From positions 2,418,001 through 2,482,000 of the forward strand of contig OZ004607.1 of the NCBI GenBank assembly GCA_963924565.1: DNA of 64,000 bases, read 5' to 3'. The notes beneath the pieces are model-generated. The model searched no databases and was not told the DNA's origin. It saw nothing but the letters and a program-made list of their open reading frames with translations. Both the position numbers and the translations under genes were made by a program. Of the stretch, positions 9,535 to 13,690 are shown piece after piece (the first letter of the stretch is position 1; each line of letters starts with the position of its first letter). The stretch is from Ascidiella aspersa. Taxonomy: Eukaryota.

Positions 9535-10451
9535 CTCAAGTGTGAGTCCTTTCATGTCGTCTTAGGCTTTTCACCATTGTGAATTCTTTCATGAACTTTA
9601 AGAGTTGCTGCACGACAAAAACATTTTTCACAAACTTTGCATCTAAAAAGTTATTTGCCAGTGTGTATTCGTTCATGTATTTTAAGATGACTTGCTTGGA
9701 TACAACGTTTTCCACAAAATTTCCATTTGCAATGTTTCTGTCCAGTTTGAGTTCTCACTTCTTTAAAGCTTTTTGCACAAACTTTGCATTTGTAAGGTTT
9801 TTCTCCTGTGTGAATTTTGTCGTGTTTCTTTAGATTTCCAGCATGGCTAAAGCATCTTCCGCAAACTTTGCATTTGTAAGGTTTCTCGCCTGTGTGAATT
9901 CGTTGATGTCTTTCGAGTTTTGAAGATTCCAGAAAGGCTTTTCCACAATCTTTACAAATAAATGATCTTTCACCAGTGTGTATTAACTTATGTCTATTAA
10001 AATTGACAGTATTTTTAAATCGTTTTCCACAAACTTCGTATTTATATGGACTTTCTCCGGTGTGAATTCTTGTGTGAATTGTAAGTTCTCTACTTCTACC
10101 AAACAATTTCCCACAAAACTTGCATTTGTATTTCTTGAAGTGAACCGTGGATAAGTGATAACTGAGCAGAGGGCGTCTTTTGAAACACTTTTCACAAATG
10201 TGACATCGAAACTCCGTATTATTGTCGCTTTGGGGTTTGAGATTTCCATTCCTTGTTGTAAGGTCTTTTTCCTTTTGCTGTTTGTTAAGATGATCCAAGT
10301 CACTTTCTTCTTCACAATCGGACTCTTCACTTACAGCTTGATGTTCTTCTGATGACCAATCAATATTCGTGGCAATAGAGTCGTCAGAAAATCCATCATC
10401 GCTCTGTTTTTTCAACTCTGCATTTTCAAGATTGGTTTAAGATTTTGACAT
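9535..10451 (-). pseudogene. Inverted ZF paralog, pseudogene
   Basis: True start ATG at 10451 reads ATG TCA AAA TCT TAA (stop at codon 5), in frame with ORF 9651-10415; one finger has C>Y, one is internally deleted; finger sequence continues past the stop at 9651. Confidence 0.85.
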
Positions 10452-10803
10452 ATTTTATTTCCTAAGAATACTTGAAAGAGGTTTGTCAAAATGTAAAACC
10501 GCACCTATCGCCAACAGTACACAGTATCACGTCTATAGAATAGAAAAACCTGATGTCAGTTTGCCAGCCACGTAAACTACAGAGTGGTAAACCTAAACTT
10601 CTCACGCTATGTTTTTTTAAAGGCTGTCGATCTGTTTTGATAACAACGTTATAAGTAAATGAAAGATGTATACGCACGCCTGTGAAAACGATGATATAGC
10701 CTTTCTAAAGTCGCTTTGTGATATCATAGTATAGCGGGAGCCTTAGGAAGAAAAAACACTTCTATTTATTTTGGAGCATAATGGTTGGAGGTTGTAGTAA
10801 GAC

Positions 10804-10968
10804 GTAATAAGAATATCAAAGCCCATACAGAAGTAGGTATCATTTTGGACGTTTCGAATAACTCTTTATTCATTTTCAACATCTTGAAAATGTTGAAAAT
10901 GAATAAAGAGTTATTCGAAACGTCCAAAATGATACCTACTTCTGTATGGGCTTTGATATTCTTATTAC
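10804..10968. repeat. Perfect inverted repeat, 79-bp arms with 7-nt loop; Penelope pLTR-like
   Basis: 10804-10882 is the exact reverse complement of 10890-10968. Confidence 0.95.
10893..10924 (+). ncRNA. Minimal hammerhead-like motif with U3-A8 core variant (mirror copy on minus strand 10848-10879)
   Basis: UUGAAAA-U-[GAAUAA agag UUAUUC]-GAAA-CGUC: core, stem II, palindromic ACGU stem III, GUC triplet; stem I only ~2 bp. Confidence 0.5.
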
Positions 10969-11006
10969 TTCTATTTATGATGCAAGAAAAGCGGACGAGA
11001 CAACTA

Positions 11007-11078
11007 TCCTTTGGTGAGATTCGAACTCACAACATTGGTCAAAAAGGGTCGTCGCTCTACCAACTGAGCTACACAGGT
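11007..11078 (-). other. tRNA-like element (pseudo-tRNA or SINE head)
   Basis: A box TAGCTCAGTTGGTAGAGC; T arm GTGAG-TTCGAAT-CTCAC; partial acceptor stem CCTGTG/CAAAGG; anticodon arm unpaired. Confidence 0.75.
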
Positions 11079-12225
11079 TCAGAAGGCAGCGAGTCAAGAA
11101 ACAAACAAACACCAAATGATTTGCTACATTAGTTAAGGGATCTACAGTACCATATTATTTAATAAAAAATATTCACGCAAACAAGTAAACTGAGTGTTTA
11201 ATAGGTCGGGATGCATAACTAACTGTACACTACTTACGCCGTTAAGAAGGCACGGATTAACTCCGACATGATGCCTTGTCCCTAACTAGGTCTTGGTAAT
11301 CTACAACTGCAAAAACTATATTAAACAATGGATCTAGGTCTAACCGCTGAAGTAAACTCTTATCTTTTTTATTTTTTAAGGTAAAAACGTGTATAGTGGC
11401 TAACAACTTACACATTAAATTACATTTAATCAGAAGCTCAACATCTATCAAAAGACGCTTTTTAGCATCCACCCTAGACTGTAAAGAGCCGACAGGCTAA
11501 ATGGTGATAGTATATCACGATAGCAGCCCGCTTAAGATCAGACTTAGCTGGCGTGACTTAGCAGCGTCATGGGGAATTTGCCAACTGTCTTGCGCAGCTG
11601 AAGAAGGGAAAGCCTTTTGGATTTGACACGTGTTTAAATTTATGGAATTTAGAATTTGGTTTCACTATTATCGCGTTCAATATATGTATGACGTGGGAAT
11701 TAAAACTCCTGAAAAGTTATATTATAATGCAACTGAAATGGATGAGTTCTGCCTTGAAAGGATAAGTTTTCTATTTCCTCAAAAGCATGAGCCTTTAAAT
11801 TATTCTTTATTTAAAGTAACCTTCCTTTATTATAAGTCTACTAACTTATCTTTTATATATCTTTAAACTTACTGTTATAACACCTAAATAAACGTTACTT
11901 TTAAAACCAAAGAAAACGATACAGTTTCAAAATAACATCCGAGTTTACTTGAGTTTAACCATTTGATTTTACCTTAGTAGTAACTCCCAAGAGACCAAGA
12001 CAATGTCGCACATCAGTCCGTTACACATACAGCGTAAAAAGGCAACTTCGCAATGCAGCTTAAATAAAAGGCGGATCTACGTTTAACGAATTACAGCATT
12101 ATGCAAATTCAAAAAAAGTGCAACGTTTTTTAACAGCAGTTTTTATCTTATTTCTGGCTGTCGTCTTCCCTGCTGTATCAAATTTTTGTGAGTTGCATTT
12201 GCTGTAAAAGTACGTATATTATTGA

Positions 12226-12429: not shown

Positions 12430-13690
12430 CTAAGTTTCGTAGCGTAGTAAAAAACAAGTAGAATTTTAAGTCCTAACCGTGAACTTATTCCCGCTAGCTA
12501 TTTAAATCTTCAGCGCTTTTTGTTCTCGCTGTATATACATTGTTACAGTCCGCTGCGCAAGACGGCTGAAATATAGCCTCAGGGTGTGGCGAGCCAACTT
12601 ATAGTTGCAGTTCTAGTTTACCACGACTTGTACTTGCGCCCTAGACAAGGTTAGTATTGCTCAAGTATATTTAGAGAAAGATAAAGCGTTTGTTAAAATC
12701 AGTTATAGTTCGAAAGGTTTTCAATTATTTTTAGCAGGCTTAAAACTAACCAACGTGTCTTTTGTCAGAACTTACAAATTCGTTTTTATCTTGTTTTCAA
12801 GGATCAGCAGTAAAGCATAATAATAGTGTAGGAAGAACACGACAAAGTATTTAGAGAAAATTTGAATATTATTTTAATTTTTTTAAAGGCTCATTTCTAG
12901 CCGTTGTTTGTTTAATATGTGTTTTCAAATTTTTTGGTTTTGTAATGTATGTAAATTTTAACCTAAACCATAGCGACATTCCGGTAAAAATTATGATCAA
13001 AAATCTTGTATAACCTGCCTTATAAAACAGGTCATACAAGATGTGTTATATCTGCTAGCTGTTTAAACCTTTATCGCTTTTGTTTTGCTGCGTAAGACTG
13101 TAGGAAATATAGCCTCAGGGTATGGCGAGCCAACTCAGAGTTGCAGTTCTAGTTTATCAGACGCACTAGACAAGGTAATACTCAAGACTATTTAGAAAAG
13201 ATAATACTATAATAAAAATCAGTTATAATAGTTCACAAGGTTTTCAAATTTATTTTAGCCTGCTTTGAAACTAATCAACAAATGTGTTTTGTTAGAACTT
13301 ACAAATTGTTTGTCATCTTGTATTCATAGATCAGCATTCAAGCATAATAATAGTGTAAGAGGAAACCGACAAGGTTTATATTATAGAAAGCAACCGTAGC
13401 GACATGCCGGTAAAAACTAAGATCAAACATCGTGTATAACCTGCCTTATAAAACAGGTTATACAGTGCGTTAAATCTGCTATTTAAACCTTAAGCGATGA
13501 TTTTTCAGCGTAAGACTATTGGAATAGCCTCAGGGTGTGGCGAGCTAACTTACAGTTGCAGTTCTACTTTATCACGGCTTATACGTACGCACTAGGTAAA
13601 GTCATTATTAGTGAAGTATATCAGAAGAACATATATCGTTTATTAAAAGGAGTTATAATGTACAAAAGGGTTGAGATTTATTTTGTTTTG
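12430..13690. repeat. Diverged ~415-540 bp tandem repeat, about 3 units
   Basis: Core TAGCCTCAGGGTRTGGCGAGCYAACT at 12574, 13110 and 13525; flanks align. Confidence 0.85.

Follow-up and report, generated by a model that had tools for sequence, protein, structure and literature searches.

The window, i.e., the whole 64-kb stretch of Ascidiella aspersa DNA analyzed here, harbors an inverted repeat that is exact over 79 bp, with arms at 10804-10882 and 10890-10968 that are separated by a spacer of 7 nt. The palindrome extends to 86 nt at 98% identity, and no other exact inverted repeat of at least 18 bp with a loop of at most 30 nt is found in the window. Each arm, read outward from the center, contains one minimal hammerhead motif. 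The element to which the palindrome belongs is larger than the palindrome itself: it spans 197 bases (10770-10966), including an unpaired tail of 34 nt (10770-10803), and is flanked by two identical copies of a 12-bp target-site duplication (10758-10769 and 10967-10978), which surround the hairpin only and leave a tRNA-like piece outside. The features at the locus are, in order of position:

10758-10769, no strand: left copy of the 12-bp target-site duplication, identical to 10967-10978; single in the empty allele
10770-10882, minus strand: long (direct) arm including the 34-nt tail (10770-10803); 100% match to the start of the open reading frame (ORF) of L152, an intact copy of the parent element; among 90 copies the most frequent 3' end is +113/114
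10845-10879, minus strand: minimal hammerhead of the U3-A8 variant in the long arm, seen as a motif in the sequence; predicted cut between 10848 and 10847; a C3-G8 motif is found at the same position in the sister family L257
10883-10889, no strand: junction of 7 nt; on the minus strand, 10883 corresponds to a G added ahead of +1, which likely stems from the cap
10890-10968, plus strand: short (inverted, tail-less) arm with the second hammerhead motif; 100% match to L152; its last 2 nt overlap the duplication; inverted arms most often have their outer end at +79 to +81
10967-10978, no strand: right copy of the target-site duplication, identical to the left copy
10975-11179, minus strand: decayed tRNA-bearing repeat from a separate and older family, covering unit positions of about -100 to +133; 71% identity to a young copy; also in the empty allele
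11006-11078, minus strand: tRNA-like cloverleaf within the repeat copy; Rfam score 36.5 bits; A and B boxes intact; T5 gained in the anticodon arm

A C2H2 zinc-finger ORF at ~9540-10436 (minus strand) is separated from the insertion by some 330 nt. The frame of its zinc-finger array (84-nt repeats, 9536-10436) is apparently broken near 9750, and the ORF continues in another frame. Further along the window, at about 12550-13600, three copies of a tandem repeat with a period of roughly 500 nt are seen.

Counted from the first A of the ORF of the parent Penelope-like element (PLE), the long arm comprises nucleotides +1 to +113 and the short arm nucleotides +1 to +79, and both are 100% identical to L152. 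An initial annotation of this DNA had described the exact palindrome with a hammerhead motif in each arm and had likened the arms to PLE terminal repeats (pLTRs) that carry minimal hammerheads, which agrees with this identity. It had also taken the perfect arms as a sign of recent origin or homogenization; we read them as a sign of recent origin. The minus-strand tRNA-like stretch with A and B boxes that was noted at the same time is real: it matches Rfam family RF00005 at 36.5 bits (gathering threshold 29, E 5e-5), the boxes are visible, and its distance to the outer end of the short arm is 37 nt, close to the ~40 nt first given. Default ARAGORN calls no tRNA in the window. Matches of the palindrome to miRNA families in Rfam all fall below the gathering thresholds and were dismissed as generic hairpin matches.

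The hairpin is very probably a recent, polymorphic insertion of two short PLE end pieces that are joined head-to-head, likely two cDNAs of the element RNA, at an AT-rich site adjoining an older, unrelated tRNA-bearing repeat. The polymorphism is seen in an empty allele, a 147-nt contig from sample S2 (run X2, from the same study as run X1) that covers 10660-10769 and then continues with the letters of 10979 onward. The depth of this contig, 173, is in line with that of neighboring unique contigs, and run X2 yields no contig covering the filled junction, which is carried by X1 and by 5 reads of X7. The empty allele is represented by one contig from one other sample, so that a deletion from one 12-bp repeat to the other, arising in library preparation or in assembly, is formally possible. 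Because this allele contains the tRNA-like piece and lacks the hairpin, the tRNA-like piece is older than the hairpin on this evidence, and the hairpin is polymorphic.

These data bear directly on the first of two proposals in the initial annotation, i.e., that the tRNA-like piece is the Pol III head of a composite, non-autonomous element that includes the hairpin and is moved by Penelope machinery. The tRNA-like piece does point into the hairpin, 37 nt away, and the two families are often found near each other: arms lie within 1.5 kb in several tRNA-family loci, and one short PLE copy (L067) is only 27 nt from a tRNA-family piece. However, the empty allele with the tRNA-like piece alone refutes a composite at this locus unless the contig is an artefact, and the duplication encloses the hairpin only. 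The two parts also differ in age. A search with the arm in the species' own 309-Mb genome gave 1212 first-look candidates, the top copies of which are 99-100% identical and often occur as inverted pairs, whereas the tRNA-like piece gave 1171 candidates, often in ~140-nt tandems, with the best others at 77-90% identity. No tRNA piece is found within 1.5 kb of the other arm loci from the arm search. Among 90 sampled short PLE copies (see below), the two pieces abut only in the window's own copy, and tRNA-family sequence occurs anywhere in the fetched flank of 4 of the 89 others. In two loci, L033 and L030, the tRNA-family copies have a duplication of their own, outside or nested within the PLE arm. 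The initial annotation had itself stated that its proposal would fall if head and hairpin belonged to separate families adjacent only here and no transcripts were found; searched separately across the genome, they are two families that differ in age, and the supposed head is internal to a larger repeat unit. A composite element is therefore hardly credible. Mobilization by Penelope machinery fails for the composite and survives as an idea for the neighboring family alone, which inserts with Penelope-like signatures. As a separate observation, the tRNA-family copy at L030:1340-1680 lies within a PLE arm older than itself and is flanked by an 11-bp duplication of its own, which shows that either family has at times been the target of the other.

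The parent element was reached by walking in the 5' direction from longer arm copies through the 3' UTR into an ORF with RT and GIY-YIG domains. A 44-mer from the arm has 508 exact copies in the genome, while the reversed control has none. Intact ORFs are found in copies L152 and L153 and encode 840 amino acids from the first ATG, with an RT followed by a C-terminal GIY-YIG domain. The RT matches the RVT_1 profile above the cut-off (E 1.8e-9), and the GIY-YIG match (residues 742-779, E 7e-4) scores 20.2 bits, just under the cut-off of 22.6, with the motif visible in the translation. A PDB sequence search with the ORF gave no matches. The full element forms a tandem array on contig C9 with a period of 2671 bp and four matches. 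Long 5'-truncated copies display the same inverted-arm layout as the short copies (hereafter referred to as stubs), which places the hairpin at the short end of one size series. The family thus combines an ORF with RT and GIY-YIG domains, partial tandems with an inverted truncated copy, a one-sided tail and a duplication with an empty site, i.e., the features of endonuclease-bearing (EN+) PLEs. The stretch that links RT to EN contains a single Cys, set here against the Zn-finger-like linker described in passages of PMC8557442, and the absence of a Cys-rich linker would place the element with the Penelope/Poseidon type. The head-to-tail array of L148/L149 (G000:C9:23.487-23.496 Mb, period 2671 bp) is capped by an inverted arm, and its copies share a frameshift near the endonuclease end.

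Other relatives are present in the same genome. A Pfam GIY-YIG search of the genome recovered other PLE-type families and two probably bacterial contigs, with the parent family not among them. At least three further PLE families (L257, L259, L043-L054 and L056-L065) have C3-G8 minimal hammerheads in their pLTRs, and L257 and L259 contain long open ORFs of 848 and 880 amino acids, respectively. The two small contigs (L041 and L042, on G000:C35 and C11) have bacterial-looking GIY-YIG genes, and the L042 gene presumably resembles UvrC, as judged by eye; a contaminant or symbiont in the assembly is a possible source of these contigs. At L262 (G000:C7:28923379-28923834), the start of the PLE ORF, from about +4 to +155, is repeated head-to-tail in 3-4 copies that have a period of ~153 nt and a decayed hammerhead core, which looks like a nascent retrozyme-like derivative of the parent PLE.

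The ends of the stubs were determined in 90 of the 508 copies, i.e., the first 30 listed and 60 of the next 70, with 10 skipped; the sample includes the window's copy and two non-independent groups (L076-078 and L191/193). It was picked by a pattern that reaches into the tail, so that direct arms carry the tail by construction and the reverse layout is seen only in longer copies. An inverted arm is present in 57 of the 90 stubs. The direct 3' ends fall at +111 to +115 in 57 of the 90 (modal +113/114), and the outer ends of the inverted arms at +78 to +82 in 27 of 57 (modal +79 to +81). Duplications of 11-16 bp flank 41 of the 90 stubs (12-13 bp in 32), those of 6-10 bp flank another 12, and a simple search finds none in the remaining 37.

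Among 147 arms, 37 have their 5' end exactly at +1, i.e., at the first A of the ORF, and in 27 of these 37 the preceding base is a G, where the parent has a T. Over all exact matches in the genome the base before +1 is G in 270 cases vs A, C or T in 360, and among 100 listed non-G matches it is T (the parental base) in 66, A in 17 and C in 17. In the raw reads, 700 loose ends lie at the +1 position, and a TATA-like box of the parent starts at -32. In a passage of PMC9341517 an untemplated 5' G in L1 is attributed to copying of the cap; by analogy, +1 is likely the capped transcription start. A second, weaker group of 5' ends, at +36 to +38, lies near the predicted ribozyme cut and comprises 17 of the 147 arms; after dropping five arms that are artefacts or duplicates (L208, L212, L165, L193 and the inverted arm of L169), 12 such ends are left vs 3.7 expected (p about 1e-3). 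Collectively, the stub 5' ends suggest cDNAs of capped RNA, with the added G, and of self-cleaved RNA, while microhomology in an A/T-rich stretch is an alternative cause of the +36 to +38 group. Two other candidates were rejected. The 5' ends that seemed to gather at -19 result from a one-base indel relative to the reference copy and are artefactual. Splicing or trans-splicing behind the +1 boundary does not agree with the parent, which has no AG before +1, nor with L083 and L093, where exactly one G is found between the duplication and the ATG.

In its overall design the family resembles the Penelope element of D. virilis, Pen2/Pen2a of Adineta (PMC3846280, in part) and PAc of Anolis (PMC11167929, in part), with which it shares a single ORF with RT plus a C-terminal GIY-YIG domain as well as partial tandems. 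Further similarities to these Penelope/Poseidon-type elements are the inverted 5'-truncated end, the 34-nt tail on one arm, the short duplications, the TATA-like box in the pLTR, the overlap of the pLTR with the ORF start and a predicted cut 26 nt after the ATG. Passages of PMC3846280 describe an inverted pLTR, a tail, a target-site duplication and TATA/Inr elements for the Adineta PLEs. The layout of the flagged hairpin, i.e., an inverted and a direct end with a tail of ~34 nt and a U3-A8 hammerhead, is thus already described for PLEs. In contrast to known EN+ PLEs, the commonest product here is a stub that starts at the first A of the ORF with an added G, which is not described in the available passages of this literature.

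A mechanism that would produce such stubs can be outlined from the end positions. The protein of the element would nick both target strands about 12 bp apart, and reverse transcription would begin at two internal positions of the RNA, i.e., +113 and about +80, each primed from a different target strand. Each cDNA would then run to the 5' end of the RNA, likely a capped start at the first A of the ORF, 32 nt below the TATA-like box; a capped start at this position would explain the added G. Some copies would stop near the ribozyme cut at +36. Finally, the two cDNAs would be joined with a few filler bases, and a perfect palindrome would result with no need for selection on a hairpin RNA. The identity of the arms, a duplication that flanks the hairpin alone, the empty allele and the two preferred outer ends are observed directly, and from these we infer the two nicks and the two internal starts. 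According to passages of Frangieh et al. (PMC11167929), the PLE tail is the interval between two internal start sites of reverse transcription, with both target strands cut and extended.

The same element could also have generated the palindrome by other chemistry, either when an antisense template folds back and primes itself, as has been suggested for rotifer PLEs, or through twin priming as in L1. Self-priming has been argued from junction palindromes and is favored for head-to-head palindromes (PMC3846280, in part), and some junctions in our sample, e.g., in L095, do overlap by short palindromic microhomology. However, the ends of the two arms often fall, independently of each other, on shared RNA landmarks (+1 preceded by the added G is found on either arm), the filler at the junctions is variable and often copied from an arm, and the outer ends fall at two fixed sites rather than at one variable internal site. 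We consider self-priming and twin priming less likely than the two-site model, of which self-priming is the main rival.

The hammerhead motif of the arms is composed of a U3-U4-G5-A6-A7-A8-A9 core, an extra U, a 6-bp helix II, GAAA, C and GUC; it has the core with 3-8 covariation, the helix II and the NUH triplet of a minimal type I hammerhead. The predicted cut is at +36, where helix II starts, and lies 26 nt after the ATG; for PAc, passages of PMC11167929 likewise describe a cut at stem II, at the same distance of 26 nt from the ATG. A U3-A8 variant, an extra base before helix II and pairs on opposite strands are reported for metazoan PLE hammerheads (Cervera and De la Pena 2014; PMC4209133, in part). 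The arm motif agrees with these minimal type I PLE hammerheads in the U3-A8 covariation, the unpaired base between A9 and G10.1, the G10.1-C11.1 pair, the lack of a loop 3 together with a palindromic ACGU, and the close spacing of the pairs on opposite strands. With 2 bp, helix I is shorter than the usual 4-5 bp; the same source reports this for D. virilis as well. Unlike in that source, the cleavage triplet reads GUU, not GUC, in about 80% of the family (78-84% of the reads), while the window's copy and the intact parents have GUC, and cleavage is here predicted from the motif. In the sister families L257, L044 and L056, this position is occupied by C3-G8 motifs whose helix II sequences differ. 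RNA read through a stub is predicted to fold as a single hairpin of -128 kcal/mol. Because helix I is only 2 bp and the RNA would fold in this manner, the hammerheads within the stub are predicted to be inactive passengers. For PAc, passages of PMC11167929 state that hammerhead cleavage in vivo was not seen in RNA-seq.

The second proposal of the initial annotation was a natural cassette, i.e., a hairpin RNA transcribed by Pol III and selected at this locus as a source of siRNA. A 79-bp duplex would suit Dicer or ADAR as a substrate. The A and B boxes are intact, and the window's copy has lost the T5 that in the family directly follows the cloverleaf. On the other hand, a T5 at 11045 within the tRNA-like part and a T4 at 10990 precede the hairpin on the minus strand, as the initial annotation had pointed out in a caveat of its own. 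Moreover, the insertion is polymorphic, and hundreds of other loci contain such palindromes, which arise there as a by-product when the element inserts. A selected cassette is therefore very improbable. Incidental double-stranded RNA from read-through, e.g., from the region of the neighboring zinc-finger gene, is possible. One RNA run (an ordinary cDNA library, of which ~6% was used) gave reads that match the repeats family-wide but none that match the unique flanks, and is uninformative for Pol III transcripts and small RNA.

The flagged locus itself is ordinary mobile DNA, i.e., a Penelope stub beside another repeat, and its value for the mechanism is modest. The stub population has a wider use. 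The PLE cycle is still poorly resolved, and here intact parents and hundreds of near-identical stubs reside in one genome, such that the stub ends could be used to test two-site priming, the transcription start and hammerhead cleavage in vivo.

The neighboring tRNA-bearing family is a lead worth following. It is composed of a non-coding repeat unit of 346 nt (3923 first-look candidates) with an internal cloverleaf, and a relative with a period of 139 nt exists. In the consensus, ARAGORN at a relaxed threshold identifies a cloverleaf followed by T5, and young copies score 43-55 bits as tRNA; the window's copy has lost this T5 and gained one in the anticodon arm. A set of 30 loci was chosen by similarity to the 3' part of the unit, which favors partial tandems. 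In these loci the 3' ends fall at unit positions 167-174 in 19 and at 267-270 in 7, i.e., at two sites ~95 nt apart; duplications of 7-14 bp are found in 18, and the ends are not followed by poly(A). Of eight inverted arms, four end at the other fixed site. The family thus occurs in partial tandems, ends 3' at either of two fixed sites, has inverted arms and short duplications and lacks poly(A), as in PLE-type insertions. Because its ends, duplications and inverted arms reproduce the insertion signature of the PLE stubs, it is a candidate for mobilization by a PLE.

Relaxed pattern scans revealed no convincing hammerhead in the units or in the consensus, and in Rfam only tRNA scores above gathering. 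Comparison with 28 sampled loci (26 with PLE-type GIY-YIG or ORF-start sequence and the 2 probably bacterial contigs) showed no similarity except for inserted repeat copies. Because neither a hammerhead nor a partner among the sampled PLE loci was found, we put mobilization by a PLE forward tentatively, as somewhat less probable than its converse. The family resembles non-LTR retrozymes and other PLE derivatives (bioRxiv 10.64898/2026.07.22.740005 and the Chlamys MRC1-type in PMC8557442, both in part) in having a short non-coding unit, head-to-tail partial tandems and PLE-like ends, but differs from retrozymes in having an internal tRNA cloverleaf where no hammerhead was found, and in the lack of a sequence link to the sampled PLE families.

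Similarities to tRNA-derived SINEs are also evident, i.e., a region with A and B boxes, a high copy number and short duplications; examples of such SINEs are Sm-alpha of Schistosoma and Cics-1 of Ciona. In contrast to these elements, the tRNA is here internal to a tandem unit, there is no poly(A) or simple-repeat tail, and two 3' ends as well as inverted arms are found. A possible, though not the favored, reading is that the family is a hammerhead-less Pol III "SINE" served by PLEs in place of LINEs, in which the tRNA would provide a promoter or a processing site as hammerheads do in retrozymes, and that the stubs are an in vivo record of PLE reverse transcription with two primers, a capped end and ribozyme-cut ends. 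If PLE-mobilized, the family would extend tRNA-derived passengers to a third retroelement class. No tRNA-derived PLE passenger appears in the titles and opening lines of abstracts in the literature searched; the supplements of the retrozyme preprint could list some, and this result is no proof of absence. In the 30 loci (L215-L244, e.g., L223, L243, L218 and L241), 7 of 30 direct blocks start at unit positions 16-33, near the 5' end of the cloverleaf.
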